64,000 nt of DNA, taken from IMG/VR virus record IMGVR_UViG_3300002835_000041, positions 54,982 through 118,981 of that record. One strand, given 5' to 3'. The translations under genes were made by a program, and so were the position numbers. This stretch comes from a virus. Under the pieces are notes generated by a model. That model searched no databases. It was not told where the DNA came from and worked only from the letters and a program-made list of their open reading frames with translations. Position 1 is the stretch's first letter. The number at the start of each line of letters is the position of its first letter. Of the stretch, positions 2,003 through 34,790 are shown in pieces.

Positions 2003-2398
2003 TTATTTTGTAAGTTTGTATGAATAACGGAAACCAATTTTTCCTATATACTTTGACAATCCAGGATAGTATCCATCGAAAAACATTATGTATCTTGGGT
2101 GAGTAGAGCATATAAAAGCAAGTTTTTCAGCATTATTTTTATCTATAGTAAAAAACCAATCATAAAAATGTTTTATTAAAGCATCAAAACCATTTTCTGC
2201 AAGTTTACTTTCTACTGGAACATTGTATTTAACTAACTCACCAAGCATTATTGTTAGATCAGTTGCTTCTTTAGCCATTACAGACCAATCATCTTTAGAA
2301 TATGTAGATAGTCTTTCTTTGCATGCCACAACATTCTGACTGTCTGGCTCTCCCACCATCAATTCTTTCCATAGATCCTTGCATGTTATTGTTTCCAT
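2003..2398 (-). CDS. stand-alone TipAS-like antibiotic-recognition domain protein
   Basis: LxxLxxxxxPxxS...HF..WF...L.....PRY..FFD...PGLSKYI pattern; start moved to ATG 2398 because the track ORF runs into a tRNA. Confidence 0.6.
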   Translation of the reverse strand: METITCKDLWKELMVGEPDSQNVVACKERLSTYSKDDWSVMAKEATDLTIMLGELVKYNVPVESKLAENGFDALIKHFYDWFFTIDKNNAEKLAFICSTHPRYIMFFDGYYPGLSKYIGKIGFRYSYKLTK

Positions 2399-2426
2399 GC
2401 AGTAATTATACACCACAAATGATTTG

Positions 2427-2499
2427 TACCCCTGGCAAGAATCGAACTTGCGACGCATGGCTTAGAAGTCCATCGTTCTGTCCACTGAACTACAGAGGT
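2427..2499 (-). tRNA. tRNA-Arg (UCU)
   Basis: Cloverleaf, anticodon loop CTTCTAA, GTTCGATTC T-loop; no encoded CCA. Confidence 0.92.
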
Positions 2500-10297: not shown

Positions 10298-10612
10298 ATG
10301 ACCCTACTATATATACTCTATAGCCCTGTGTATAAGGCTGTCAAAATAGGGATATCTGATGTCTCAGGTAGAAGGTTTGCAAGCCATAGGACCAAGGGTT
10401 GGATATTGATTAAGTATTGGGCATTTTCCGAACGGGATAAAGCAAGAGCAATAGAATCCCTAGTAGTACAAACCCTTACTTCCAAGTATGGACATTTCCT
10501 GGATAAGGCGGATATGCCACAAGGGGGTTATACGGAGACATTTGATGCGTCGAAGATAACTCGAAAAGGTTTGATCCGTATGGTCAATAGGGCTATAAAG
10601 GATGTATCGTAA
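10298..10612 (+). CDS. GIY-YIG-like (T5orf172/MUG113-type) nuclease domain protein
   Basis: LYILY...VKIGIS...RR..SH...E..V...GYTETF. Confidence 0.7.
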   Translation: MTLLYILYSPVYKAVKIGISDVSGRRFASHRTKGWILIKYWAFSERDKARAIESLVVQTLTSKYGHFLDKADMPQGGYTETFDASKITRKGLIRMVNRAIKDVS

Positions 10613-10818
10613 TCTTTATTTACCCTGGCATTTTGGACACTTGGATGTAGGGTTTGAGGTTCCATAAGGTACTTGGAACATACCCCCACAGTCAAAGCAT
10701 AAGACATCTAACATTATCCAGTCATCCTTATCTGTTGTAGGTAGGCCATATAGTTAAGAAATATGAATAGGCCAAGCATGATGATTAGGAAAGGTTTCAT
10801 ACATAAAGTATATCAGAG

Positions 10819-10991
10819 TTATCCACAGGTTGGACAGTAGTATGGAGCATCAGGCTTATCTGGATCGATAGCCAATAGGTAGTAACATTGAGTGCATTTA
10901 ATGTCACTGAGTTCGTGTTCTGTTGTTGGGTCTGTTGTCATATGTTTAGTATATCATGGTTTTCAACAGAGTTATCCACAAGTTATCCACA
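10819..10991 (+). promoter_or_regulatory. DnaA-box cluster 1
   Basis: TTATCCACA at 10819, 10972, 10983; degenerate TTTTCAACA at 10960. Confidence 0.7.
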
Positions 10992-11312
10992 GATTAATCT
11001 TACTGATAATATTATTAGACACTCTAGAAGTGGAGCATTGTGGAGGATAGTGGAGTAGGGAGCGCTTTTAACGATGCGTTCGTAATCTTTTTTTGGAGAG
11101 AGGGGCCTTATCACAAAACCTTCATATTGTCAAACCTCAAACCTTCCTATCCCGCTGCGGATGATATCACAGATATAATGGTTTGTCAAGTCCTTTCAAA
11201 CCTTAAAACCCCATAAAAAAATCTCCCAAAACCAGGGAGAAATTGTCGATAATCGTAATGTTTTTTTAACAAACCTTTATGTTATTTAAAGAAACCAGGA
11301 GATAATGGTTTG

Positions 11313-11558
11313 TTATTCTATAGGGGTTTGTTCTTGTATGGTTTGCTCTTGATCCCCTGGGATTTCGCCTTCGGCGAAGCGGCCTGTGGCCTGCTCAATT
11401 TCACGGGCCTGCAAAAATTCGGGGGTAAATGTAAAGAATCTATTCAAACCTATAGCATGTGTAACAGTAACAAATGAGTTCCACATGTTATCTGAGAAAG
11501 CCTGATATTGTTTAGGATCTCTTTTGGCATATTCTGCAAAGTGATGTTTAGGGCTCAT
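11313..11558 (-). CDS. hypothetical protein
   Basis: ORF track; start moved to MSPKHH below TATAAT. Confidence 0.5.
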   Translation of the reverse strand: MSPKHHFAEYAKRDPKQYQAFSDNMWNSFVTVTHAIGLNRFFTFTPEFLQAREIEQATGRFAEGEIPGDQEQTIQEQTPIE

Positions 11559-11587
11559 ATATTTATTATAACACCATATAAAAGGGT

Positions 11588-11616
11588 TTGACAAACCTTA
11601 CAAACTATGGTATAAG
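11588..11616 (+). promoter_or_regulatory. sigmaA-type promoter with no downstream ORF
   Basis: TTGACA-17-TATAAG with TG extension; -35 lies within palindrome GGTTTGACAAACC. Confidence 0.55.
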
Positions 11617-11744
11617 TTCAGCAGGGGGAAAGATTTGAAGGTTCGTAATGTCCTGGTTTGGGGATATAAAGGTTTGGATCGTAATAAGGTTTGGTGGTTT
11701 GACAATTTGATAAAAGTATGGCACGTGCCCTTTCGGGTCACTGA

Positions 11745-12005
11745 TTATTCGTCAACAAAAATATCTTCAAGTCGTGCGTAGCCTTCGTCTTGAATTCCCA
11801 AACCTTCAATAAACAAATCCCAAGTTTCGTTGATGTATTGTTCTAGTGTTGGTGTGTGATTAATTATTCCTTCAGCAAAACCAAAAGCAAGTGGCAAACC
11901 TAAATCGTTATACTCCATAAAATCTGACCACTCGTCATCCTTTTTAAAATTAACCCATAGTTGTCCAAGGATTAAAGCCTTGCTATCAAAATCCGTTGTT
12001 GGCAT
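11745..12005 (-). CDS. acidic hypothetical protein
   Basis: ORF track; GGAAGGA SD. Confidence 0.7.
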   Translation of the reverse strand: MPTTDFDSKALILGQLWVNFKKDDEWSDFMEYNDLGLPLAFGFAEGIINHTPTLEQYINETWDLFIEGLGIQDEGYARLEDIFVDE

Positions 12006-12219
12006 AATTTGTTCCTTCCTTAGTTTCTTTGGCTGACTCTGCTATTACCTGTAATCGATTATACACTACATAGGGCTGAGATTTTGCTAAGTATTCCCCG
12101 ACCAATTCCAAATCAACTCTGAGGTCAGCAATAATGTTGCCCATTTTATTGGCAATCTTTTCCTCATCTGTAATTCGTCTGCTTATACGCATAGTTCTCC
12201 CTTGTATCCATTGTATCAA
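11986..12219 (-). CDS. hypothetical protein (start probably 12192)
   Basis: ORF track; GGGAGA SD before MRISRR. Confidence 0.65.
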   Translation of the reverse strand: MIQWIQGRTMRISRRITDEEKIANKMGNIIADLRVDLELVGEYLAKSQPYVVYNRLQVIAESAKETKEGTNYANNGF

Positions 12220-12285
12220 AAAGTGGGGGAAAGAGCAAGCCCCACGCCTGCCCCTTCCACCCGATTAATCTAGGTGACCCAATAC

Positions 12286-12660
12286 CTAGATTTGCTCAAC
12301 TAAATCTGCAACACCACTGCGGGTTGGCCGATAGGCCTCAACAAATTTATCAAAGGGCACAGAGACATTATCAGTAACAGTCTTAGTAACAAAGTCGACT
12401 AGGACCGTTTTCTCACCTAGGTCCAGGCCATCATTGTCAATTGCATATATACCAAATCCGTGCTCATCCAATACTGAACCATTAATAAGATAACTTATGA
12501 TCATCCGTGTTCCATATGCTGAATCAAACCATCTAGGCTTTGAATGCTGCAGCGCCATTGCTAGGTCCCGCTGCCATTCGGTCTCGCCCCAATGACTATA
12601 GAGAACTACCCTAGGGCCCTTCTCACTGTCTTGAAATACATAGTTAATCCGTGCTCCCAT
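12286..12660 (-). CDS. conserved phage hypothetical protein
   Basis: MGAR...LYSHWG...YGTRMII motif. Confidence 0.7.
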   Translation of the reverse strand: MGARINYVFQDSEKGPRVVLYSHWGETEWQRDLAMALQHSKPRWFDSAYGTRMIISYLINGSVLDEHGFGIYAIDNDGLDLGEKTVLVDFVTKTVTDNVSVPFDKFVEAYRPTRSGVADLVEQI

Positions 12661-12998
12661 TAGTCTTGCTCCTCATCTAGGTCGCCCTCAAAGTCAATGA
12701 CAACCTTAGATACACGGCCATCATCATTTAACTGAATATACACAGGGTAGTATCCGTCACCATAGCCCGTATTAAATACAATTGCTTTACCAATGCCTAG
12801 TTCTCCAGCATTATTGGCAAGCGTTGTAGCACTGGCACCCTGATAAGAGTATTCATACATCTTGCCTTCTAGGTCCCATTCCTCGCCTTCGTTAGTATTC
12901 CAGCCGTCAAGGTAGCAAGGGTCTCCCACCATTGCTTGACCGCTGTCCACAGCGAAGGAGCCTACTAATCTTAGTTCATCTATTACTATTTGTGTCAT
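12660..12998 (-). CDS. DUF4241-like protein
   Basis: VDSGQAMVGDPCY...F.TGYGDGYYPVY. Confidence 0.7.
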   Translation of the reverse strand: MTQIVIDELRLVGSFAVDSGQAMVGDPCYLDGWNTNEGEEWDLEGKMYEYSYQGASATTLANNAGELGIGKAIVFNTGYGDGYYPVYIQLNDDGRVSKVVIDFEGDLDEEQD

Positions 12999-13429
12999 TT
13001 TGTTTCCAATCCTACTAGGGTCATTTCTTCAAGTGTAGCACACTGAGGGCATTTTGGCAAGTCTGCCTCATCAAAGGCATCTCTAACAGTATTATCAGGG
13101 TCCTCAAACTCTGCTCCACAGTTCTCACAGTAGAACCAGTTATAACTAACTCTGATTTGAATTGTTGTGTTGGGTGGGCAAGGAACTTCAGTAATGAAGT
13201 ATCCTAGTCTATTTACAAATCCCCAGCCGCTCCAGATATATGAGCCACCATCGTCGCCATCACCATACATCCAGATACGGTCCTCTGGCTGCTCTTTAAC
13301 AAAGGCAACCTCATCGCCATAGGTTTCAAACATCTCACCATTAAAGGAGGCGTTAGTATCTATATGATTTTTGATTGGCTTGTATGTGTCACACCAGTCA
13401 TCAAAGTCCATTTCAATAAAGTTATCCAC
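12995..13429 (-). CDS. hypothetical protein with C-terminal Zn ribbon
   Basis: G.GFVNRLGYFITE; CENC...CPQC. Confidence 0.7.
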   Translation of the reverse strand: MDNFIEMDFDDWCDTYKPIKNHIDTNASFNGEMFETYGDEVAFVKEQPEDRIWMYGDGDDGGSYIWSGWGFVNRLGYFITEVPCPPNTTIQIRVSYNWFYCENCGAEFEDPDNTVRDAFDEADLPKCPQCATLEEMTLVGLETK

Positions 13430-13700
13430 GGCTCTTTATCCTATCTGCAATAGCAAAGGCTAAAGCATATGTTAGATTATATACTTCCACATAAGCGTCA
13501 AGCCTTCCTTCTGCTCGTGTGCGGTCCATAGAAAGCATTGCGTCAGAGTAGCCACCCTCACGCTCTTCCTTTTCAATCTCAAGGTATTCAGTCTCAGCCT
13601 CAAGCATTAGGTTCTTAAGTTCTCCGTGTAGGATATCAGTTCCTGATACTCCCATATTAACTGCTAGTTGTAGTCGTGGGTCTAGTTGTGTGGTTTCCAT
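13422..13700 (-). CDS. hypothetical protein
   Basis: ORF track; tight gene packing. Confidence 0.65.
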   Translation of the reverse strand: METTQLDPRLQLAVNMGVSGTDILHGELKNLMLEAETEYLEIEKEEREGGYSDAMLSMDRTRAEGRLDAYVEVYNLTYALAFAIADRIKSRG

Positions 13701-13702
13701 AG

Positions 13703-13909
13703 TTATATTCTACCCTCTAGCACTGACAAGAAATGGCGGGTAGCAATAAGTTCACCTGTATTATGCATGTCATCAATCTCTAGGTCACGATACTCATCAG
13801 AGTCATAGTCACCCTCAAATGTGTCCATTAGGTTTTGTAGTTTGTCTGCATCCTGCAAAAGGCTAATCTCATGCAGGCGTATATATTCTTTGAATGTATT
13901 TAGGTCCAT
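13703..13909 (-). CDS. hypothetical protein
   Basis: ORF track; tight gene packing. Confidence 0.6.
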   Translation of the reverse strand: MDLNTFKEYIRLHEISLLQDADKLQNLMDTFEGDYDSDEYRDLEIDDMHNTGELIATRHFLSVLEGRI

Positions 13910-13910
13910 A

Positions 13911-14153
13911 CTATAAAGTATACGGGTTTGAGTTGATTTTTACAACTTCACGGGGTGTGACCTTGCTCACATCTGTAATGATCGGAGCATAGGCTTCTTC
14001 ATAACTAATATAGTTTAGCATCCTACCACAAGGGCATTTCATTTCCACTACCCCCAGGGGGAAGCCAAAGTCATCCCTAGCGGTAAATTCAACAAGAGCA
14101 TCACACTCATCAGGATCGCAAACAAATGTATACTTACTCCACATTGTGAACAT
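13911..14153 (-). CDS. hypothetical protein (CxxxxC, CxC)
   Basis: ORF track; SD from AAAGGAG. Confidence 0.6.
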   Translation of the reverse strand: MFTMWSKYTFVCDPDECDALVEFTARDDFGFPLGVVEMKCPCGRMLNYISYEEAYAPIITDVSKVTPREVVKINSNPYTL

Positions 14154-14322
14154 ACTCCTTTGCCCATTCAGGCGCTTCGCCTTCTACCCAATCTAATTTA
14201 ACATCAAAGTCTCCACCGCCACCTTCAGGCCAGCCAGTTGTTACTACTAACTCTGTGCCGTCTTCAAAGAAGATTTGCTCAACAATGGTGCGGTATGTAA
14301 TTTCACGGGATTGAATGTTCAT
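14134..14322 (-). CDS. hypothetical protein
   Basis: ORF track. Confidence 0.55.
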   Translation of the reverse strand: MNIQSREITYRTIVEQIFFEDGTELVVTTGWPEGGGGDFDVKLDWVEGEAPEWAKEYVHNVE

Positions 14323-14528
14323 TAGTCCTCTATATATTCTACTGATACTTGGTGGATTACTTCATCATACTTAACAAGGGTATCAATGTCCTCAACAAAA
14401 CGAGCAATAAGATAATCAACCTTATCCTCAGTGCTCATATCAGGTGGACCATAGAGTTCAAACCCTATATCATTAGACATTGCTTCATCAATATCTACAA
14501 TCTGTTCAATGGCTATTTTAACTTTCAT
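14322..14528 (-). CDS. hypothetical protein
   Basis: ORF track. Confidence 0.55.
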   Translation of the reverse strand: MKVKIAIEQIVDIDEAMSNDIGFELYGPPDMSTEDKVDYLIARFVEDIDTLVKYDEVIHQVSVEYIED

Positions 14529-14723
14529 TTGCTATTTGCTCCAGCCTCGTATGCAACCTTGTAAATCTCTACAAGTCTTAGGTATGTTCCTTTGACTGCA
14601 TCATCCTCATTAGACATAGAGGCCTCAAAGTATACGATTTGGTCTGCTTGGTCTTGCAGTTCTTCTTTATGCTCTTTCGATATCTTGATTTTCATTTGGG
14701 TCCTTTGTTTGGGTTATATATTA

Positions 14724-14746
14724 ATTATAGCGGAGACCACTGACAA
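14724..14746 (-). promoter_or_regulatory. promoter with TTGTCAG box 11 bp upstream of -10
   Basis: TTGTCA-11-TATAAT; same geometry at 16884, 17544, 18105, 22066, 23228, 24518. Confidence 0.6.
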
Positions 14747-15057
14747 ATTAGAAATATCCTTCTGCCATTAGTCCTTCAAGGAAGTCTTTGGTTTTCCACA
14801 GGGTATTGTGTAGCCAAGGATCTTGATCAGGATTAACATTAATCATAAGTGATTGAACACCCAAGATCATATCTAGTGCATCTACTTCTTCATATCCCAC
14901 TAGTGGCATTATCCTACCTCTATCCCAGCATACTTAGCCATAGTATTAAGAGTGATGTGGATGTGACAGTCACAATCCTCTCCCCCCATATTTTCATCAA
15001 ACTCTAGGTGAGAGAAATTGTCCTCATAAATCTCATTGATTAGTTCGTCTATGGTGT

Positions 15058-15300
15058 TCATTTTGTGTGCCACTCCCCTAGTTCAGGTAGGAATACATTT
15101 TCTTCTATATCCCATTGGGCATCGTCCCAACTAAGTTCATCAGACATTACCTTGGCAATCTCGTCTATGAAGGTTTGCATAACGGCTTCTGCGTGGTGTC
15201 TATTCTTAGCCTTGATATTTGTAATAGAGATAGCAAGATCACAAGAATAGTAATCTGCATACATTGTTGGGTCTTCCATTGTTTCTGTTTCTAGGGTCAT
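15058..15300 (-). CDS. acidic hypothetical protein
   Basis: ORF track. Confidence 0.6.
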   Translation of the reverse strand: MTLETETMEDPTMYADYYSCDLAISITNIKAKNRHHAEAVMQTFIDEIAKVMSDELSWDDAQWDIEENVFLPELGEWHTK

Positions 15301-15515
15301 ACATATTCCTTTTCGTAGGCTTGGTGTGAGGTTACTACTAATTCTAGCATTTCGGCAGGGTATCTGTCAAGCACCCAATTAAGGGCCTCTCCAGCAGTCT
15401 TAAAGTCAGAGGCGGTAGTGCTCTCCCCATAACCTTGAATGGTTGCTTCCCAGCAGTCAATACCACCAGGTGAGACGGAGTAGTTCATTTCATATATTGC
15501 CACTTGTTTGGTCAT
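15297..15515 (-). CDS. hypothetical protein
   Basis: ORF track; promoter TTGACA-17-GATAAT at 15522-15550. Confidence 0.65.
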   Translation of the reverse strand: MTKQVAIYEMNYSVSPGGIDCWEATIQGYGESTTASDFKTAGEALNWVLDRYPAEMLELVVTSHQAYEKEYV

Positions 15516-15555
15516 ATATTAATTATCGCATAATCTAGGGAAAATGTCAACTCTA

Positions 15556-15630
15556 TCGTAAAGATTTTTTGGTTTGACATTTTGGGGGATCTTTTATAGT
15601 CTTCGTAAAGATTTTTTAATTTGACATTTT
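15556..15630 (+). repeat. 28-bp direct repeat, two copies
   Basis: TCGTAAAGATTTTTT(GG/AA)TTTGACATTTT at 15556 and 15603. Confidence 0.85.
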
Positions 15631-15698
15631 TATGTCCGATTTGTCTGGTTTGGGGCACGTGCAATTTTTATGCATTGCAGTGCATATTTATTTACTTG

Positions 15699-15772
15699 CG
15701 ATCCGTACGGGACTTGAACCCGTGACCTCTACCGTGACAGGGTAGCGAACTAACCAACTATTCTAACGGACC
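15699..15772 (-). tRNA. tRNA-Asp (GUC)
   Basis: Cloverleaf, CTGTCAC loop, GTTCAAGTC T-loop. Confidence 0.92.
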
Positions 15773-15813
15773 TAATGGTGAGCAGTTTTAATTCTTGCTC
15801 AGGAATTTTTTTG

Positions 15814-16836
15814 TTATGCTAAAGACATAACATTCTGAACTACTTTTAGCAAACGATTTTTTTCTGCGTTGATAGCAGGGTCAAATCCTGATGCTGATGC
15901 GAGAATGGATTCGTTATTGCCACCACGAGCAGAACGATACCAGTCAAGTCGCTCAGTTAGCGCATTGAACGCACCCCAAGCATTACCAGCAATCATACCA
16001 TTAAATTCACCAGTGTAAATATCGTTAATCATATCTACCTTGTTTTCCCATTTCTTGCTTGAACCCTTAGCATCTTTTTCAGGCTTTGGGTAAGCAGCAA
16101 GAATGATTTTGTTAAAGTCAATGGCGCTAACTTCTTTTTCAATCATAGCCTTAGCCATAATATCAAATTCGTCCATATAAGCATTAGCAAGACCAAGAGT
16201 TTCACGAGCAATCTGAACTTTGCCGTTAGCGGTCTGAGTGTGGCGAATCTTGAAAGATTGCTTGATGCCCTTATTCTTCTTACGACCTACGCCACCAAGC
16301 GCAAGGTTAAGAGTGTTAGCGCATACGACACGAACTGGCGTGATGCTTGCTTGAATAGCGATTGAACCATCGTGTGATGTGTTGATGAGCAAATAAGTTT
16401 TTACCTTATCTGATACACCATTAGGGTCAAGAATTGTTTCACGCTCTAGTGCTAAAGCACCGAACACGACACGACCACCCTTGATTGAACCAGCGGTTTC
16501 CCAACGACCACCGCCGTCTAGGATATTATCACCGAATGAAAACAAATCTTCATTTTGTAGTGGGTGATAACGCTCACCAACAATTCCAAGAACATCTGTC
16601 TGAGAGTTATCTGTTGGGTTAGTGCGTAGGACATACTGATATGCCTTATCGCTTGTGAGATGTGTAGGGGTTTCCAAATCTTCTAGGCGAACATTCCACC
16701 CATTTAGATTTGCTGCTTGTAGCATTTCTGCCGTTGTTTTTTCTTCTGTAAAGACTGTTCCCAATCCGTGCCAAGCAGGTTCTCTGAATGATGCGAATGA
16801 GGTTTTGCCATTTTGCGTTTCTAAGTCGTGAGCCAC
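15814..16836 (-). CDS. DUF932 / TIGR03299 phage-plasmid-like protein
   Basis: MAHDLE...REPAWHGLG, GRWETAGSIKGGR, SHDGS, TPVRVVCANTL, IRHT. Confidence 0.9.
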   Translation of the reverse strand: MAHDLETQNGKTSFASFREPAWHGLGTVFTEEKTTAEMLQAANLNGWNVRLEDLETPTHLTSDKAYQYVLRTNPTDNSQTDVLGIVGERYHPLQNEDLFSFGDNILDGGGRWETAGSIKGGRVVFGALALERETILDPNGVSDKVKTYLLINTSHDGSIAIQASITPVRVVCANTLNLALGGVGRKKNKGIKQSFKIRHTQTANGKVQIARETLGLANAYMDEFDIMAKAMIEKEVSAIDFNKIILAAYPKPEKDAKGSSKKWENKVDMINDIYTGEFNGMIAGNAWGAFNALTERLDWYRSARGGNNESILASASGFDPAINAEKNRLLKVVQNVMSLA

Positions 16837-16937
16837 GATTTCCTTCTTTCTGTTGTTGATAATCTAATCATACACCCACCCACCGACAAAAGTCAAATCG
16901 TATAAGTAATCAGGGGACAAATGGGGCATTTCGTAAC

Positions 16938-17041
16938 TGTGTCGTAATTCACAATGTGATCTTCGCCATGTGGATAACCTGTGGATAAACCCCACGTGCA
17001 AAATTTTATAAAAAAGAGAGCAGTTTTAAAACTTGCTCAGG
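16938..17041. promoter_or_regulatory. regulatory cassette: CRP-like box, DnaA-box pair, CCACGTGC, conserved hairpin
   Basis: TGTGT-N6-TCACA 16938; TGTGGATAA 16969 and 16980; CCACGTGC 16992; hairpin 17018-17041. Confidence 0.7.
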
Positions 17042-17061
17042 TTTTTATTAGTAGCCCCCTA

Positions 17062-17493
17062 CTAAATATCTATTCTATCAATTGAGGATGATAGATAAGA
17101 AATGTTGTCTGAGTTATAATCGACGGTATCGAAATCAATATCGTGAATTGCATTCTGTGCATCCTCTTCAGTGCGAGCATTAACAGTAACAGAATACATA
17201 ACTGTAACTTCAACTTCGAATTCTTTTGTTAATTCAAAGCCCATAATTTCTGCAATTGATTCTGCTTGAGACTCAGAGATATCTTCACTCTCTAATTCAC
17301 TAAGGGTCCACTCTTGCATTGATTCAACCATACGGTTGCGTTCTGCAGAGTCTGCATATGAGCGCTGAGTTACTTTTTGAATGTGCTCCTCTAATTGAGT
17401 TACACGCAATGTTGCCTTGGCTAAAGAATCACGAAGAAACTCTTCTGTTGCATTGACTGTGCTTGCTAGTGTTGATATATCTTGCTGGTCCAT
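17062..17493 (-). CDS. hypothetical protein, N-terminal coiled coil
   Basis: ORF track; AAAGAGG SD. Confidence 0.7.
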   Translation of the reverse strand: MDQQDISTLASTVNATEEFLRDSLAKATLRVTQLEEHIQKVTQRSYADSAERNRMVESMQEWTLSELESEDISESQAESIAEIMGFELTKEFEVEVTVMYSVTVNARTEEDAQNAIHDIDFDTVDYNSDNISYLSSSIDRIDI

Positions 17494-17556
17494 TGGGGGC
17501 CTCTTTCTGTTTGTTGGTTTATATTAATTATACTGTAAGGCACTGACAATTGTCAA

Positions 17557-18054
17557 CTACCAAGATGAGCAATAAGAAAATGAAAGTCGATCAATTTCTG
17601 GTAGCGCAAATATACGCTCTAATTGATTAATAGTATTAGTAAGGTCCTTCCAATACCATTCATCAATATCTGTGCTCCCAAAGAAAAATCCTTCTTGTGG
17701 TGGGAACAGGCTAGGGTCTTTTGTTTCTAATGCGTGTTTACATAAAGCAAGCAACTCTATTAGTTTATCTTGTGAAACATAGTAACTACCACAGTCATCA
17801 ATACCGTTCTGAATATTCTTTACGAACCAAGCGTGTATCTGATTAGCCTTGCGCCAATAAGCACAAGTAACTTCTACGCTTGCTCCATAGATATCTGTAG
17901 CGACATCTGTTAGTTGAGTTATTTCCATTAAGTCATTGAACTTAGGGTATACGGCTTCGGGTGAGTCATAAGATAGTTCATCATTTGACTGTAGTGCTTT
18001 CCAGTTAATTTTTTCTAAATGCTTTTTAGCACTAAGATACATATCTAGTCCCAT
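17557..18054 (-). CDS. conserved phage hypothetical protein (MGLDMY/YWRKAN family)
   Basis: MGLDMYL, YWRKANQIHAWF, GFFFGS. Confidence 0.8.
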   Translation of the reverse strand: MGLDMYLSAKKHLEKINWKALQSNDELSYDSPEAVYPKFNDLMEITQLTDVATDIYGASVEVTCAYWRKANQIHAWFVKNIQNGIDDCGSYYVSQDKLIELLALCKHALETKDPSLFPPQEGFFFGSTDIDEWYWKDLTNTINQLERIFALPEIDRLSFSYCSSW

Positions 18055-18109
18055 TGGGGGCTTCCTTCTTTCTGTTTGTTTCTTTTAATTATACTATAGG
18101 GGTCTGACA

Positions 18110-18238
18110 AATTGGGTGATAGGGGTAGGCACGGCCGTTAGTCTGGAACCCACCCCTATCAGATCCCCAGGGGACGCTTGCTATAAATAGCGTGGAACGC
18201 AGGGGATAATGAGTGGGGCTTTTACACCCCACCCAATT
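18110..18238. ncRNA. candidate GC-rich structured RNA
   Basis: Hairpins 18118-18160, 18163-18207, 18213-18232 plus outer 9-bp complementarity 18110-18118/18230-18238. Confidence 0.4.
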
Positions 18239-18244
18239 ATCTAA

Positions 18245-18667
18245 TTAGAGATAACGAGCAACCGCATTGTATGTGGAAGTATTTACAACTTCCTCATCTG
18301 TCATCTTTAAGATGCGAATTGCGTTTGTGATTTCCTCTTTCATTTCCTTATAGGTATGAGTGTGAATAACCTCAAAATCCTTTTCAGGTTCAGCAGGGAA
18401 AGTTCCCTCTTTTGTGATGATGTCAAAATCAACATTGAGAGTGTTGTTCCAAGAACGATAGTTAGTGCGTAGGTTTTCAGCCTTTGAGAAGTTGGCAATA
18501 GCCCACTCACCAATTTGCTTTTTCCAAGCCTCATAAGCAACTGTGTGCTTGCGTTCGTTTTCTCCTTGTGTTGCGTAGTCCATCTCTAGTTTTGCTAGTG
18601 ATGCCTCTAGTCCTGCGATTACTCGCTGAGTAGGGATTTTTACTGAGATTGCTTTTCCTCTAGCCAT
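18245..18667 (-). CDS. hypothetical protein
   Basis: ORF track; AGAGA SD. Confidence 0.75.
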   Translation of the reverse strand: MARGKAISVKIPTQRVIAGLEASLAKLEMDYATQGENERKHTVAYEAWKKQIGEWAIANFSKAENLRTNYRSWNNTLNVDFDIITKEGTFPAEPEKDFEVIHTHTYKEMKEEITNAIRILKMTDEEVVNTSTYNAVARYL

Positions 18668-18759
18668 TTGTTTTCTCTTTTCTTTTGTGGGGTATTAGTT
18701 GGGGGTGTGTGAGCCTTTTTGTATCTTGCTCAGGATAGTTTTTAGCGTTATTGCTAAAC

Positions 18760-18924
18760 TTACTTTGCCGTCCAAGTTGTATAACGGGTTGCGCCATTTA
18801 CATCTAACTTTACACGAACATTTCCATTAGCCTGTGGTGTAATTTCTGTAATTACTCCGCTGACCTTTGACTTCTGTGTTGTGAAAGTGTCGCCGACCTT
18901 GTATGTTGCTGTTGCTACTGCCAT
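18760..18924 (-). CDS. small beta-barrel (SH3/KOW-like) protein, paralogue A
   Basis: MAVATATYKVGDTFTTQKSKVSGVI...; read from sequence. Confidence 0.7.
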   Translation of the reverse strand: MAVATATYKVGDTFTTQKSKVSGVITEITPQANGNVRVKLDVNGATRYTTWTAK

Positions 18925-19029
18925 TTTTTTCTCTTTTCTGTTTAGGGGTTGTTATTTGGTTATACCTAAGTATAACATTTTGCGGATAAAAATGTCAAAT
19001 CTAAACCTGACATTTCTCACATTGTGAGA

Positions 19030-19200
19030 TTACTTAGAGGTCTTGACCATAGCAAGGCGTTGTGCGCCATTTGCCAAAATCAGACTAACTCTGGTAACCT
19101 TATTAGACATTGGTGTAAAACCTGCGATACGACCTGTAACGCCTGTCTTGCTGGTTGTGAATAAATCACCAATTTGGTAAGTGTATCCGTGAAGTGTCAT
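19030..19200 (-). CDS. small beta-barrel (SH3/KOW-like) protein, paralogue B
   Basis: MTLHGYTYQIGDLFTTSKTGVTGRI...; GAAAGG SD. Confidence 0.7.
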   Translation of the reverse strand: MTLHGYTYQIGDLFTTSKTGVTGRIAGFTPMSNKVTRVSLILANGAQRLAMVKTSK

Positions 19201-19439
19201 TTGGGTCTTGCCTTTCGTTGTGGGGGTTAATTGCTTATAGTATAATTTTAGCAAAAAAATGTCAGAAATACAAATCCTGGGGGGGGTTCTGGGGTGTGTT
19301 CTTAAACACATCTTAAAGGCGTGTCGCAACTTGACAAATCAAGTTTTGCGGACGTGGATCCCATGCAATTTTTATTGGTAAAAAAATAAAAGTACTATGC
19401 ACCAAATTAAAAATATTATTTGCAGGGAATTCATTTATC

Positions 19440-20174
19440 TCATTTCTTACTCGCAGAAAAAATTATGTCACTCTTAGAGTATACACAAAGTGAGCAAGAA
19501 ACGCAAGCGCTACCTTGTTGAGATATAAGTTTAATTTGTTTATTATTCTCAGGACACTTAGCAGCGGGGCGACCAATCATTTCTTTTACATCGGCCTGGC
19601 CAATTGCAAAATTCTTAGCAAGATATGCCATTCTAACACCGCTATTAATTTTTAGATCAACGGCAGTTTTTACATTCTCGCTATCTGCAGAAAAATACAA
19701 TGATAAATTAGATACATCCTTAAGAATAAGTGCAGCAGCCTTTACTCTAGTGTATACCCAGAATTGAATGTCGGGGTGCTTATCAATAACTACTTTCCAG
19801 GCATAGGTATAGGTATCGTTAAAGAAATCGCCGTCCCAGTGAATACGGAATAACTTAGGAGCGTCTTTCTTTTCACAATCAGATACAAAATCAACAATCA
19901 TCTCATCAAGCAGGCGCACCATAGTTTCTCCGTCTGCGTCTTTCAGCAGGGACCAATTGTGCAATAGGTTAACCTTTACGGTTGGGAAGACTTTTTCAAG
20001 TTTTCCTGCGTAGCAAACGCTTTCACAAACACTAGTGGCACCAGGGCACGAGAAAGCCTTTCCAGCAGGTAGGCCAAAGGTATTTGCGATACTTGCTTGT
20101 TTTCCATTAGGGGTGACGGCATTAGCGACCTTTCTATCTTTAGATCTTTTTAGTTTAAGTGTATTAGTAGTCAA
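19440..20174 (-). CDS. Gp88-family protein (mycobacteriophage gene product 88-like, radical-SAM-related)
   Basis: FGLPAG...SCPGATSVC...CYA, FRIHWDGDF, FWVYTR, C-terminal CPE...CxxCxxC. Confidence 0.8.
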   Translation of the reverse strand: MTTNTLKLKRSKDRKVANAVTPNGKQASIANTFGLPAGKAFSCPGATSVCESVCYAGKLEKVFPTVKVNLLHNWSLLKDADGETMVRLLDEMIVDFVSDCEKKDAPKLFRIHWDGDFFNDTYTYAWKVVIDKHPDIQFWVYTRVKAAALILKDVSNLSLYFSADSENVKTAVDLKINSGVRMAYLAKNFAIGQADVKEMIGRPAAKCPENNKQIKLISQQGSACVSCSLCVYSKSDIIFSASKK

Positions 20175-20340
20175 GGCCTAGACTCATTTCTAGAGCAATG
20201 TCTTCGTTATAGTGAGCGGACATTTCTTCTAGTAAGCAATGAGTGCACTTTTCTTCATATTCATCAACCGCATTTTCACGGCAAGAAGGGCAGGTGGTTG
20301 CGTAGTATTCATCATAGAATTCATCAGCGATATTTCCCAT
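20164..20340 (-). CDS. small Zn-finger protein
   Basis: CPSC...CTHC; start moved to MGNIADEF with AGGAGA SD. Confidence 0.65.
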   Translation of the reverse strand: MGNIADEFYDEYYATTCPSCRENAVDEYEEKCTHCLLEEMSAHYNEDIALEMSLGLDY

Positions 20341-20345
20341 AGGGG

Positions 20346-20492
20346 CTATTCTCCTTTTTGTTGTTTTTTTAATTGTAGCAGTTCGGACTGACATTTTTTA
20401 CGGTTGTATTTCTTTTTATTAGGCACCGCAGAGGCAGCATTAGAACGGCGAAGTTCCATAAGTCTGCGTAATTCCTCTGAGTTTTTTTTCAT
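20346..20492 (-). CDS. small basic hypothetical protein
   Basis: ELRRSNAASAVPNKKKYNRK; leaderless-type start. Confidence 0.65.
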   Translation of the reverse strand: MKKNSEELRRLMELRRSNAASAVPNKKKYNRKKCQSELLQLKKQQKGE

Positions 20493-20536
20493 ACTTAATC
20501 TTAGCATACAGGGGCAAAAAATGTCAAATCTTAAAA

Positions 20537-20574
20537 TGTGATAAATCTCACAGGGCGGGACGTGGACCACGTGC
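20537..20574. promoter_or_regulatory. perfect CRP/GlxR-type box plus two SSACGTSS elements
   Basis: TGTGA-TAAATC-TCACA 20537-20552; GGACGTGG 20558; CCACGTGC 20567. Confidence 0.7.
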
Positions 20575-20610
20575 ATTTTTGTGCGGGGAAGCACACAAAA
20601 ATACTTTTAA

Positions 20611-20853
20611 CTATTCTTCTTGTTCAATAAAAACATACAACGGAATTAAATCAGTATAACTATACTGTGTAAATTCTGTTTCACCAAATTCATTTTCGGT
20701 TTGTATGTCGTAGTTATCTCCTGTTGAATCACATTCAATAAAATTAACTTCAACGATGTCATCACCAATTTTAATTAAATCACCAAGCATTAATTGGTCG
20801 GGTGTTAAGTTATCTGCGTGGATCAATTCCATAGTTTCCATTGTATCAGACAT
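20611..20853 (-). CDS. acidic hypothetical protein
   Basis: ORF track. Confidence 0.65.
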   Translation of the reverse strand: MSDTMETMELIHADNLTPDQLMLGDLIKIGDDIVEVNFIECDSTGDNYDIQTENEFGETEFTQYSYTDLIPLYVFIEQEE

Positions 20854-20854
20854 T

Positions 20855-21139
20855 CTATTCCTCCCAATCAGGTAGCCAAAATTCCAAGTGGTGTTGGCTT
20901 ATGATAGCCCTCGCAGGTGCGTGAGTCATTCCCTTATAGAGAATCTGAAAGTCGCCAACCATAGGCATATCAATCATTCGGTCATAGTCCTCATCATAGT
21001 ATGCGTCAATAGCCTCGATACAAGGTTTTACCATTTCTGCGGGGACGGGTGGATAGTGATTACCTTTAAGGTGATAAAGTAATTGTGTTTCTAAGTCTAA
21101 GACTTCATCTTTAATTCCAAGTGCGGTTATGCTTCCCAT
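20855..21139 (-). CDS. hypothetical protein
   Basis: HLKGNHYPPVP motif; GGAGA SD. Confidence 0.7.
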   Translation of the reverse strand: MGSITALGIKDEVLDLETQLLYHLKGNHYPPVPAEMVKPCIEAIDAYYDEDYDRMIDMPMVGDFQILYKGMTHAPARAIISQHHLEFWLPDWEE

Positions 21140-21281
21140 TATATTTTCTCCTCTATGTCTGCGACATAAACATCGCTTCGTCTAATCATTCCATATTTTA
21201 AGTTACTATCGAACATATCAACGGCATCTTCTTCATTGTCTGCCTCGACATTTATAAAACAAGTAAATTCATATAGTGCCA

Positions 21282-21500
21282 TTACGCTCTTACCTGAACC
21301 CTTCCATCTCGGTAGAATACTTTAGTGTAACACTTTCCTGTCGGTGTGTAAATATTCACTGTTGAGTATTCGTTAGCCATTCCCCAGTCGGTAAATCGGA
21401 AAAAACTTTCCCAAGCACCAAATTCGTTTTCATAGCGTTGTTCCCAGTGAGGTTTTGCCTCTGAGTCATACTGACAAGTTACTAGGTATTCATATTCCAT
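21282..21500 (-). CDS. hypothetical protein
   Basis: ORF track; GAAAGAGG SD. Confidence 0.65.
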   Translation of the reverse strand: MEYEYLVTCQYDSEAKPHWEQRYENEFGAWESFFRFTDWGMANEYSTVNIYTPTGKCYTKVFYRDGRVQVRA

Positions 21501-21809
21501 TATTCTGCCTCTTTCGTTGTAAATAGTGCGCCTTCATTAAGTAAGCCGACTTCCAAATTAAATAACTCATCTGAGTTTGCTTGCGACAAGTCTATCCAAC
21601 CTGCGCCTTCATTGTCAATTCTAAATATTTCTATGTATCCCATTAGTTTTCACACTCACAATCTTTTGAGTAATCAAATTCGCAAAAATAGCAACCCATT
21701 AACTCGCTATGGGTTTTACACTGATAACGGAATTGGACTTCATCACAACACAAGAAAGATAAATCCCAAATCCAATAGAATTCGTTTTGGTCAATAACAC
21801 TAGCCATAA

Positions 21810-22016
21810 TTACTCACCAACCTTTACTGCGATAGTCGCAAATTTATTTCGCAAGCCTTTAGCATTGACCTCAATTAGATAGGCTTCGGTATTTTCTCCA
21901 TACCAAATTCCTTCTCGCTTTTGAGCCGATACAATTTCGCCCTCAAAGTGGCGGTTGCGTGAGCGATAGTTTTTCCCTACAAGTAGGCTTTCTATTGTGT
22001 ATAGTTTGGTAGCCAT
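21810..22016 (-). CDS. hypothetical protein
   Basis: ORF track; GAAAGAGG SD. Confidence 0.7.
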   Translation of the reverse strand: MATKLYTIESLLVGKNYRSRNRHFEGEIVSAQKREGIWYGENTEAYLIEVNAKGLRNKFATIAVKVGE

Positions 22017-22200
22017 TGGCAGACCTCTTTCTTTTTGTTGATAATTCTATCCTAGCATAGCCCACTGACATTTTTAGTTAGGCTCGCCGTATCGGATAGA
22101 CTTTCTTTATTTATTTTTTCTTACTATGTAAGTCTATATGATTAAACTAAAAATATCAACTTACTAGCCAGTAAATCCAAATAGTGAGACGCTCAAGCCG

Positions 22201-22320
22201 TGTGATTAATCTCACAAAATTTCGGGCGTGTCGTAAACAACTTCTTAAACACCTGTGGATAAGCCTGTGGATAACTTTTTGCCACGTCCAAAATTTGAGC
22301 AGTTTTCAATCTTGCTCAGG
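22201..22320. promoter_or_regulatory. complete regulatory cassette
   Basis: CRP box 22201-22216; GGCGTGTCG 22225; TGTGGATAA 22254 and 22266; CCACGTCC 22282; hairpin 22296-22320. Confidence 0.75.
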
Positions 22321-22621
22321 ATCACAATTTACTTTCGCAAATCGTTTTTGATTTCTTGCCAATCTTCTTTTAGCATTGGCAACATCATTTTAAATAAAAT
22401 AAAAACGCTACCCGCTAAAAATAGTTGAACCATTGTTGTTAGTAGTCTGCTCATTTTTCACAAGCCTTTCTAAAAGTTTCAAAATCAAATCGTGGATTAT
22501 CTGCTTCGAACATTGAGCCAAAATCATTTACCAAATCGTGAAAAGTAAATTCATCTCCGATTAACTCTTTGAAAGATGAAAGAATTTCAGCAGTTGCGAC
22601 ATAGTCTTTACGAGTCATCAT

Positions 22622-22828
22622 TTATTCGGCCACCTTTAGAATTGCGTAAGTGCCACGAGCATTAATTTCATCAAGTATTGGACCAAGCGCAGGCGCTACC
22701 AAATCCTTTAGCATTCCTTCAAGCATTGCGATTAAATCTGAGTGAGGAATAGCGAGTGCTTGTTGTGCTATTGGGTGAGTTTCATCGAACTCGGTTACGA
22801 ACTTTAGTGTGTGTTCTACTTTAGTCAT
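22622..22828 (-). CDS. hypothetical protein
   Basis: ORF track; AGGAA SD. Confidence 0.65.
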   Translation of the reverse strand: MTKVEHTLKFVTEFDETHPIAQQALAIPHSDLIAMLEGMLKDLVAPALGPILDEINARGTYAILKVAE

Positions 22829-22991
22829 TTATTTTATTTCCTATTCTTTTAGTTGTTAAATTGGTTTAGGTCTTGCTCAATACCAAAATCGCATTCGCAA
22901 GTTTCTACATCATAGTCAAAATCATTTCCAAAAAAGATTAGACCTGTTGAATTACATTCCTCGCAGGGAATTGTTAAGACGGAGTTTATCA

Positions 22992-23177
22992 TTAGAGAAC
23001 CGCCTTTCCTCTAAGTGTTCCTGATACGCCTAAAGCGTCGCAAGATACTTTAACCGCAACACCAACGGGAAGTTGTGTTGGATAAGTTGAGATGAATTGA
23101 GCAACCGCACCACGAGAAGGGAGAGCGATTTTTTTAGTAGAACCATTGAAGGTTTCTAGTGTTATAGTGTAAGTCAT
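22992..23177 (-). CDS. hypothetical protein, paralogue of 25258-25443
   Basis: TITLETFNGSTKK..V..FI..Y...L..G..V. Confidence 0.7.
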   Translation of the reverse strand: MTYTITLETFNGSTKKIALPSRGAVAQFISTYPTQLPVGVAVKVSCDALGVSGTLRGKAVL

Positions 23178-23260
23178 TTATAGACTTCCTTTCTTTAAGT
23201 TGATAAGACTATCTTATCATTAGCCACCGACAAATTGGGCACTTATTTGCTTAGGCTCAC

Positions 23261-23462
23261 TGTGATACTGGTCACATTTATTTGCTAAGGCTCATTGCTT
23301 ATTTATCTTTATTTAATTGTTATAGTAGCAATACTAGCAGATAAAAGTCAAAAAGTCAAGTCCAAACACGGCGTGTCGTATGTGATTAATCTCACATTAT
23401 TTATACACAGCCTGTGGATAACTTTTTGGCACGTCCAAAAATTGTAGAGTTTTATTTCTACA
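23261..23462. promoter_or_regulatory. regulatory cassette
   Basis: CRP boxes 23261 and 23381; promoter TTGACT-17-TAGTAT (23359-23331, minus); GGCGTGTCG 23370; DnaA boxes 23401 (TTATACACA) and 23413; GCACGTCC 23429; terminator-like hairpin. Confidence 0.75.
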
Positions 23463-24500
23463 ACTTTTGTTTTTATTTATTTTATTTTATCTAAAATCTT
23501 TTCTAACTCTTTTAGTTGTTCTAAGTTTAGATGATCCAAATTAATTGCGTTAGAAAATCCAAATAAATCTTTTTCCATTTTAGTTTTCCTCAATTTCATC
23601 TAGTAGTTCCCAAAGGATTGGCTCTAACGCTTTTGCGCTTTCATCTAACTTTTCTTGTAGTGTTTTCATTGAGTTACCTCCTCAACCATAAACGGGTCAA
23701 ACTTAGCAATTTCATTTTCGCTAAGTGGGTAGAGTGTTTTATTTAGAGCGAATACCGCTCTCATTTCATCTTCTGCCTCTACGACATAAGAAATTAGCAC
23801 ATTGTATTTAGTCATTAATTTACTCCTTCTAAGAATAGTTCATACATTGGTGAACAGGTTAAACAGATTGGATACTCAAAACGAAAATCAAAGAAATCAT
23901 CTTCCATATTTATTTGGCAATTCTCGCAATAGGTTAAATCACTCATTATTTGACTCCCTTGTATAGAAAGTCCCAAGCCTTACGGCACATTAAAATTGAC
24001 TCACAGTTATCGCAACAGATAGAGCCGTGAGGGTTAAGGTTTATGTCGTAGACATCAACAAATGTATGTGTCTTTCCACATACGGAATCAAGGCGTAGCA
24101 TAGTGCTCATTTATTTTCTCCTTCGAATAGTTCTTTACACTTATTAGGATTTTCCCAATAAGGTTGCCCTTCGTGATAAAGGGCGGGGGCTAATACAACC
24201 TGACCGCAAGGGCATAGGTTCATTAAGCCTTTAGGGTAATCGCTTACAGTAGCGAATTTAGTCCAAATACTCATTTAGTATTCTCCTTATCTATACAGTT
24301 GATACAGTAGCAAGCCTTGCTAGAGATTAAAAATCTTAGCAATTCTTTTCTAGTGTAAGCGTCTAAACCATAAGAGGATTTTACTCCGCCGTTATGGTAT
24401 TCGTGAACTATTGTAGAAAATAGTGTTTCATTTAGTGTAGTCATTTTTGACCACCTTTCTTAGTGGATTTCTTTACCACTTAACTTTCTTTATACTATTA

Positions 24501-24744
24501 AGTATAGCAGGGGGGTCAGACATTTTGAGGGGTATAAATGGGGTAAATCGGACATTGTGAGGTAGGTCACATATGATGTAGGTCACATTTTTTGGGGGAA
24601 TTATAACAATTCCGTAACAATGTTATTTTTATCGGCGTGTCGATTTGACAAGATCGGGACGTGCCAATGTGGTGTAAATCACATTAAAAATGTCCGATTT
24701 GTCCGTGTCTAAACTTGACTTTTTGAGATTTCTATGCTATACTT
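24501..24744. promoter_or_regulatory. divergent promoter region
   Basis: Minus promoter near 24501-24523; CRP boxes 24556 (perfect), 24572, 24668; GGCGTGTCG 24634; GGACGTGC 24657; plus promoter beginning TTGACT near 24715 with TATACT -10. Confidence 0.65.
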
Positions 24745-24901
24745 CTAGTATAAGAAAAATTAAATAAGGGTAGAAAAAGTAAATAGGCGAAATCCCTGCC
24801 AGTAGAAAATCCTAGTGAGCCTTATCAAATAAGATAAGCAAATAACCTAGGTCAAGGAAAAAGGTTAGAAAGTCTAACCGAATAAAAGAAAGGAAGTCAA
24901 A

Positions 24902-31473: not shown

Positions 31474-32070
31474 GTGGCAGATATACTTTTATCTAATGAT
31501 GACCTAACAGTTTTTGGTGGACCAGAAACAATTAGCCTTGATTTAGATTTTGGACCAACTGGTGATCGTGGAAGTATCATTATTGGAGTCCAGGGAGATC
31601 CAAGGCAAAAGTTTGTTAATGATTCAATTTCTCAAGACATCCAGGCATTAGATATTGCAATAGACTATAGCCCATCTTCTCCAACATACAAAACAGTATT
31701 TCAAAGAATCTCAGGTCCTACTGAAACACAATGGATTCCTCTAGTTAGTTTAAAGTCAAACTTTTATTCAGAAACCAAAGGGCCCTTAACACCAGTAGGT
31801 GGCAAAATAACTATTGCACCCATAAACCTTGCAGACATTTATGATCTATCAGAAGGAACAGTCACTTCTTCAAGATTTAGCGTACAGTACTCTATATCTT
31901 CACCAGAAAGTGCTGGACCTCTAGCAACAAACCTAATTATAAAAGAACTAAACACTACTCAAGGATTTATCGCTTTGCCACTTGAAATAGAAGGAATAGA
32001 ATATCTAGATGGAGAATGGGTACCTATGGCTGGCCCAAAGTATGTTCATCTTTTTATTACGGTGGTATAA
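31474..32070 (+). CDS. hypothetical virion protein
   Basis: GTG start; GPTGDRGS. Confidence 0.7.
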   Translation: MADILLSNDDLTVFGGPETISLDLDFGPTGDRGSIIIGVQGDPRQKFVNDSISQDIQALDIAIDYSPSSPTYKTVFQRISGPTETQWIPLVSLKSNFYSETKGPLTPVGGKITIAPINLADIYDLSEGTVTSSRFSVQYSISSPESAGPLATNLIIKELNTTQGFIALPLEIEGIEYLDGEWVPMAGPKYVHLFITVV

Positions 32071-32089
32071 TGAAAAAGGGTGATCTATA

Positions 32090-34753: not shown

Positions 34754-34790
34754 AAATGCAATATGATATACTATATTAAAAGGAGAAAAA

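Follow-up and report, generated by a model that had tools for sequence, protein, structure and literature searches.

What drives the early genes of a large freshwater phage in which many small genes are separated by intergenic regions built, again and again, from the same short motifs? The question is raised by a 64,000-nucleotide stretch of viral DNA (the window; bases 54982-118981 of the IMG/VR record IMGVR_UViG_3300002835_000041, 118,981 bp, rated complete, GC content about 38%), in which the minus strand is packed with small genes from 11.7 to 24.5 kb and transcription diverges at 24.45-24.9 kb. How the phages of the dominant freshwater actinobacteria time their genes is almost unexplored, since most of these hosts are uncultured or hard to grow. 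Judging from its sequence, the phage is an uncultured freshwater (lake) siphovirus distantly related to the Streptomyces Stanwilliamsviridae; it is not a T4-type phage, the group drawn on for comparison in an earlier annotation of this DNA (the original prediction). Its leftward early arm (11.7-24.9 kb), organised in operons of 1-8 small genes with control regions between them, is probably run by composite control regions on which several host regulators would act.

Motifs were counted in the window and in the whole genome, and expected counts were obtained from shuffled sequence. The perfect DnaA box, TTATCCACA, was found eight times in the window (0.84 expected), and eight of its nine genome copies lay at 10.8-24.7 kb: two tandem pairs (16969/16980 and 22254/22266), a lone box at 23413 and, just beyond the range of the original prediction, another three at 10819-10991. 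The CRP-type palindrome TGTGA-N6-TCACA was present in six exact copies (0.14 expected), all of them at 13.9-24.6 kb. Two further motifs were far above shuffle expectation: the 9-mer CGACACGCC, with four exact copies (19318, 22225, 23370 and 24634) and all four genome copies in the arm, and the GC-rich word SSACGTSS, with nine of its ten genome copies at 11.7-24.7 kb. These motifs fell in the inter-operon gaps at 15.5, 16.9, 19.3, 20.5, 22.2, 23.3 and 24.6 kb, plus 11.7 kb, the exception being the CRP-type site at 13956, which lies ahead of an internal promoter. Along transcription the order was gene-end hairpin and A/T tract, GC-rich word, often a DnaA pair, then CGACACGCC and/or the palindrome, and finally one or more promoters. 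That such parts recur in similar order from gap to gap had been claimed in the original prediction, and enrichment, clustering and conservation in relatives all upheld it; the cassette at 22201-22320, described there as complete, has every part on the minus strand. Some of the parts are missing from most gaps, CGACACGCC and the palindrome are in swapped order at 23.4 kb, and the CTGAGCA...TGCTC hairpins have low stability (-6.6 to -9.7 kcal/mol).

Relatives were collected by searching with the GP88-family protein encoded at 19440-20174, which returned more than 590 in IMG/VR; 80 loci were fetched and 20 larger genomes were also used. DnaA boxes, palindrome, CGACACGCC and hairpin were present in all 80 fetched loci, and in the 20 larger genomes the motifs were always restricted to the early arm. 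When motif order was checked across relatives, the layout proved to be preserved in more than 80 of them. Alignment of the orthologous 20.5-kb control region (29 distinct loci) gave, in order, a terminator hairpin, a variable word, an optional GGCGTGTCG, TGTGAGATTnATCACA, 9 nt and a promoter (TTGACA-N18-TAAGAT with an extended -10) followed by a leaderless ATG.

The main promoter class was of another type. TGTCRG-N10-TAnnnT was matched ten times in the window (1.03 expected), eight of the matches being on the minus strand at 13.7-23.2 kb, and across the loci of the relatives TGTCAG-N10-TAnnAT occurred 690 times in the forward and 59 times in the reverse orientation, and almost never at other spacings. 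At the level of consensus, this class equals the PafBC motif tGTCgg(N10)tA(N3)T, which is read by sigma adaptation without a -35 element (PMC8635444). The TGTCAG box had also been considered as a MotA-like, phage-specific element, a candidate that was dropped in favor of the published PafBC motif. The list of host sites in the original prediction held for the DnaA and CRP-type sites, which match their consensus sequences, and overlooked the PafBC-type main promoters.

The spacing of the sites to the promoters was constrained. The centre of the palindrome lay 41/42 nt from the -10 element at -35/-10 promoters and 52, 62/63 or 72/73 nt from it at the second promoter class, and in one orthologous gene family the distance was 52, 62 or 72/73 nt depending on the relative. 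These 10-bp steps in orthologous cassettes imply that insertions and deletions retain the helical face, and phasing to the -10 element suggests that the CRP-type site is a promoter input. In 269 unique palindromes of the relatives the preferred bases were T at position 6 and A at position 11; with a 16-bp palindrome, an A/T-rich centre and placement on a single helix face, these sequences are of the CRP/FNR-family operator type. The position of CGACACGCC was fixed as well: its centre lay beside the -35 position, preceding the first base of the -10 element by 38 nt in sense orientation and by 30 nt in antisense orientation (about -50 and -42 from the start site). CGACACGCC includes a GACAC core, the sole ground for the proposed assignment to WhiA, but the conserved unit is the 9-mer at -42/-50, and no feature connects it with WhiA in particular. 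The DnaA boxes had an extended consensus, AGTTATCCACAGGT, with conserved flanks and tandem spacings of 11-12, 21 and 33-34 nt; as consensus 9-mers in phased tandem copies, they are by pattern a DnaA box array.

From the enrichment, conservation, geometry and consensus match of these sites we infer which proteins bind them and to what effect. DnaA_C (domain IV), Crp helix-turn-helix (HTH), WYL and sigma domains were looked for in the phage genome and none was found, which makes host proteins the likely readers. Host RNA polymerase with SigA would drive the early genes, each control region ending in a housekeeping -35/-10 promoter, a PafBC-type promoter or both, and host Crp, PafBC (switched on by single-stranded DNA) and DnaA would help and tune these promoters. 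Early genes would thereby be tied to the cyclic AMP (cAMP), DNA-damage and replication state of the host. Such a putative sensor role, with DnaA and Crp as inputs, is the reading of the cassettes that best fits the data.

Several observations weigh against this host-driven reading. One cassette family was off-phase, with the palindrome at 57/58 nt, and the palindrome centres, which fall near -54.5, -64.5, -74.5 and -84.5 when the transcription start site is taken as 7 nt after the -10 hexamer, were about 3 bp off the Escherichia coli class I positions. The DnaA boxes were farther upstream, at no fixed distance to the promoters, and so may serve a purpose other than transcription. The Streptomyces phage BillNye (Stanwilliamsviridae) has a DnaA-box cluster but a single CRP-type palindrome, from which the stacked cassette design seems specific to the freshwater group. 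A host search with the WhiB-like protein of the phage returned only phage contigs mis-binned into unrelated metagenome-assembled genomes, and no host. Finally, a conserved phage protein could read one of the conserved sites in place of a host factor, an example being a small sigma-region-4-like HTH protein of the replication module (genome positions 34586-34780, plus strand), the HTH of which is nearly identical in three genomes with different words.

Carried further, this last point becomes an alternative in which proteins of the phage alone recognise the palindrome, CGACACGCC and the TGTCRG box, the likeness to Crp and PafBC sites being convergence or mimicry. The conserved small HTH protein fits this explanation, most of the approximately 150 phage proteins have no known function, and T4 has its own MotA/AsiA acting at a -30 box. 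It is nevertheless unlikely: the sites match three independent host consensus motifs exactly, N10 spacing included, homologues of Crp, DnaA, WYL and sigma proteins are absent from the genome, and early promoters have to fire ahead of any phage protein.

The freedom of the DnaA boxes from promoter spacing bears on a second alternative, namely that the box pairs serve DNA entry, as in T5-like injection-stop (iss) regions, or act as DnaA-dependent origins rather than in transcription. The pairs are 2-3 bp apart, like those of the T5 iss (bioRxiv 10.1101/866236); the phage encodes DnaB, DnaE and RecA and no recognised initiator; and a DUF932 homologue matches twice per Streptomyces BE phage record at 1.2-2.4 kb, which was read as a terminal repeat. 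This explanation applies most to the boxes at 10.8-11.0 kb, in a non-coding stretch on the plus strand (10600-11720) that is a candidate origin: three DnaA boxes (10819, 10972 and 10983), all on the same strand, lie there beside about eight iteron-like CAAACCTT/AAGGTTTG repeats, and the cluster is kept in relatives and in BillNye (119.4-119.7 kb). A bacterial origin core (DnaA-trio system) was rejected as a candidate, visual inspection of one sequence stretch having revealed no trinucleotide repeats adjoining the boxes. As an account of the pairs in general, entry or replication is improbable: such pairs are found in more than one control region, in each case with the word on one side and the promoter-proximal sites on the other, and the T5 model is itself only a hypothesis.

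In a third alternative the cassettes are chiefly recombination scaffolds, like the promoter/stem-loop (PeSL) units of T4-type phages, for swaps of small early genes between related phages. Published PeSL precedent (PMC2839356, PMC4122927) and the high mosaicism of the arm are in its favor, as is the placement of homology breakpoints against 79 relatives, 42.8% of which fell in cassettes (21.4% expected by length); the diversity of successor genes was only modestly higher after cassette junctions. This excess is confounded, as faster intergenic divergence inflates the ends of high-scoring segment pairs in cassettes. Many breakpoints lay at tight gene junctions, cassette order was collinear in all relatives, and the longest repeats between cassettes were just 45-60 nt, with 70-89% identity. 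The gene-shuffling claim of the original prediction thus has the two-fold excess of breaks at cassettes for it and the breaks at tight gene junctions and the collinear order against it, and we doubt that scaffolding is the chief function. Least probable of all, and hard to defend, is a decoy or sponge, an idea also raised in the original prediction: replicating phage DNA would titrate DnaA, Crp and other regulators off the chromosome, and replication and gene control in the host would stop. Each phage copy brings eight perfect DnaA boxes and six CRP-type sites, a number that agrees with this idea, as does the lack of a fixed distance between DnaA boxes and promoters, but the sites are few compared with those of the host, lie in control regions only rather than dispersed over the genome, and include CRP-type and CGACACGCC sites with a helically phased, fixed spacing that a sponge would not need.

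The word at the start of the control regions behaved unlike the other parts. SSACGTSS, which the original prediction had counted among the host master-regulator sites, proved to be a lineage-specific word replaced in relatives, with 5-10 copies per locus in some and 0-1 in others. In other lineages its place behind the gene-end hairpin and A/T tract was taken by GACGTC, CCTAGG, CCTAGC, GCCGGC, GGCGCC, CCCGGG, CCCGAG/CCTCGG, GACCGCCC, CGACCCG or TTCGAA; at least 11 word types were distinguished. In the 20 larger genomes the own word was almost confined to the early arm (9/9 copies in G014, 8/8 in G002 and in G017, 6/6 in G018 and in G023), and for four of nine word types its frequency outside the arm was 2-3 times lower than that of the same word in other lineages. 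Word type switched at least 26 times on a GP88 tree of 60 sequences and differed between genomes with 97-98% identical DnaE. Asymmetric words were sense-oriented with respect to transcription (8:1, 24:1 and 8:3). In the genome under study SACGTS occurred 12 times (about 60 expected), nine of them in cassettes; six-base palindromes containing AGCT, CCGG or CGCG were absent from the whole genome save AAGCTT (two copies), CAGCTG (two) and CGGCCG (one), and 17 six-base palindromes had no copy at all, including TAGCTA (39 expected), GACGTC, GGCGCC, GCCGGC and CCCGGG. Avoidance this extreme points to heavy restriction pressure on unmodified DNA. Gene conversion between cassettes was ruled out as the source of word uniformity because the flanks of the word differ among the cassettes of one genome; the uniformity would instead reflect selection by a reader.

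A gene co-varying with the word was sought in several ways. Presence/absence comparison of open reading frame (ORF) families with the word and Fisher tests in the 80 loci revealed none, and no family partitioned by word in the 20 genomes. The best candidates from nearest-neighbour and column-wise association (window 11745-12219) were rejected: they track clades only, and phages of the CCGGC type share the allele of the CACGTG type. C5 and N4/N6 methyltransferase domains were looked for and none was found, and Pfam analysis of 30 larger lineage-unique ORFs from three genomes gave tailoring enzymes and no methyltransferase or nuclease; these scans, then, yielded no phage methyltransferase or nuclease of matching specificity such as a restriction-modification system would require. 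A unique 231-aa protein was discarded as a word reader since it is one of a family of multi-copy paralogues and shows no specificity for word type. As a separate observation, genome G020 (the record of locus L062) has nine copies of a family of about 200 aa related to the protein encoded at genome positions 31889-32584. Candidates for the word reader are a phage factor that switches fast, in the manner of a stoperator system, and a host factor that differs between strains. We tentatively suggest, with low confidence, that the word is recognised by a system with rapidly changing specificity, for example a phage-versus-phage immunity or exclusion factor acting on all early control regions, or a switch that senses strain-specific host DNA methylation. 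In the latter version, one possibility is that parental incoming DNA is told from newly replicated DNA and early genes are then turned off.

Taken along the arm in the direction of transcription, all on the minus strand, the control regions have the following composition. The divergent region at the head of the arm (24445-24901) contains a word (24657-24664), CGACACGCC (24634-24642), a CRP-type site (24556-24571) with two one-mismatch copies, and a PafBC-like promoter of the TGTCTG variant (24501-24522). Right beside it, on the plus strand, a full-length cytochrome P450 gene (25574-26758, Pfam E-value 7.7e-57) was observed that is missing from two close relatives. The next region (23178-23476) carries a word (23429-23436), a DnaA box (23413-23421), a CRP-type site (23381-23396), CGACACGCC (23370-23378), a -35/-10 promoter (23331-23359), a second CRP-type site (23261-23276) and a PafBC-type promoter (23211-23232). 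The complete cassette, with its leader, extends over 22017-22328: hairpin 22297-22319, word 22282-22289, DnaA pair 22254-22274, CGACACGCC 22225-22233, CRP-type site 22201-22216 and PafBC-type promoter 22049-22070. A small stem-loop was also seen in this leader (22150-22180), the pairing of which is kept despite two-sided changes in relatives L011 and L041 (TTACT..AGTAA vs. CTACT..AGTAG). The region at 20372-20610 comprises a terminator hairpin (20575-20602, z -4.2), two words (20558-20574), a CRP-type site (20537-20552), the TTGACA-N18-TAAGAT promoter (20498-20527) with a leaderless ATG near 20491, and a PafBC-type promoter (20372-20393).

Farther along, a word (19350-19357) and a promoter (19310-19337) with CGACACGCC inside its spacer occupy 19310-19357, and two PafBC-type promoters (17527-17548 and 18088-18109) stand without upstream boxes at 17527-18109. 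The control region at 16837-17061 includes a hairpin (17018-17040), a word (16992-16999), a DnaA pair (16969-16988), a one-mismatch CRP-type site (16938-16953) and a promoter (16867-16896), and that at 15516-15813 a hairpin (15780-15802), a tRNA-Asp gene (15698-15772), a word (15655-15662), repeated AAAATGTCAAA boxes and a promoter; an Rfam scan recovered the tRNA alone. Within the gene array at 13707-14745 there are internal promoters, two of them PafBC-type (14724-14745 and 13707-13728), and a CRP-type site (13956-13971) before a leaderless gene. The last region (11560-11745) has a word (11721-11728) and a promoter (11565-11594) with a leaderless ATG at 11558.

Several genes start 6-8 nt past a -10 element and appear to be leaderless. 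At 20491 and 11558 (minus strand) an ATG was observed 6-8 nt after the -10 hexamer, without a Shine-Dalgarno sequence, and the mRNAs starting there are probably leaderless; strong AGAAAGGAGG-type sites precede other genes of the arm. A carbamoyltransferase and the WhiB-like protein are also encoded, the latter, together with the leaderless genes, indicating an actinobacterial host. The labels of the mis-binned contigs (L098-L104) were Acidimicrobiaceae, Polynucleobacter, Methylococcus, Saccharibacteria and others, and gave no host signal. Megablast of the region against GenBank phages returned zero matches, and relatives were found there at the protein level only, among the Streptomyces BK/BE phages, the DnaE-type polymerase being about 54% identical to their versions, e.g. 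that of BillNye. Outside the arm, a 151-aa protein with a TipAS antibiotic-recognition domain (window 2003-2458, minus strand) is lacking from two close relatives, and a 488-nt exact repeat (genome positions 1-488 and 115546-116033) lies within paralogous modules, one at each contig end, that are about 3.4 kb long and have diverged; either tail-region genes were duplicated in tandem or two strain variants were assembled together.

If host regulators do act on these regions, then a very abundant group of phages, with more than 590 relatives in IMG/VR, has its early genes under the cAMP, DNA-damage and replication regulators of the host, and it uses in particular PafBC-type promoters, so far described for the bacterial DNA-damage response. 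The words resemble restriction sites, are purged from the rest of the genome and are swapped between near-identical phages; recognition of a new kind, between phages or between phage and host, could come to light through them, and they might serve to link phages with host strains.

Sites for global regulators of the host are known from other phage promoters: NtcA and PhoB boxes in cyanophages and DnaA boxes near lambda pR. In contrast to those cases, several regulator sites are stacked here in one ordered, repeated module. The PeSL/PmSL cassettes of T4-type phages (PMC2839356, PMC4122927) are likewise repeated intergenic units of a stem-loop and an early promoter among small, variable early genes; they are associated with insertions and deletions, as the present cassettes may be, and some of them have an activator-dependent box at about -30; at four hairpins of the present arm a stem-loop stands upstream of an early sigma-70-type promoter and is repeated between small genes in the same way. 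The differences are the phage type and host phylum, the additional DnaA boxes, CRP-type sites, CGACACGCC and lineage-specific word, the low identity between copies, and a cassette order that is conserved and not shuffled.

The words share with the stoperators of Cluster A mycobacteriophages (PMC6550527) a dispersed intergenic location, orientation with transcription and a consensus that varies between related phages. Stoperators belong to temperate phages, are asymmetric, measure 13 bp and have a known repressor that co-varies with them (PMC6550527), whereas the words are 6-10 bp long, mostly palindromic and restriction-site-like, lie only at control-region starts and had no co-varying gene in the 80 loci and 20 genomes. 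As for the T5-like iss (bioRxiv 10.1101/866236), the proposal is that membrane-bound DnaA retains the entering DNA through box pairs 3 bp apart. Both phages are large siphoviruses with consensus DnaA-box pairs, 2-3 bp apart, in a non-coding part of the region that is expressed first; in T5 they form one block of eight boxes in inverted repeats of the terminal repeat, and in the present phage they are distributed among several promoter regions. The closest match of the main promoters is with the PafBC-dependent (RecA-NDp) promoters of actinobacteria (PMC8635444, PMC11804915), which have the same TGTC(A/G)G, exactly 10 nt, TAnnnT and no -35 element. Unlike these, the promoters described here, with a predicted PafBC dependence, are carried by a lytic-looking phage, are present in 8-10 copies per early arm and often stand behind a CRP-type site.

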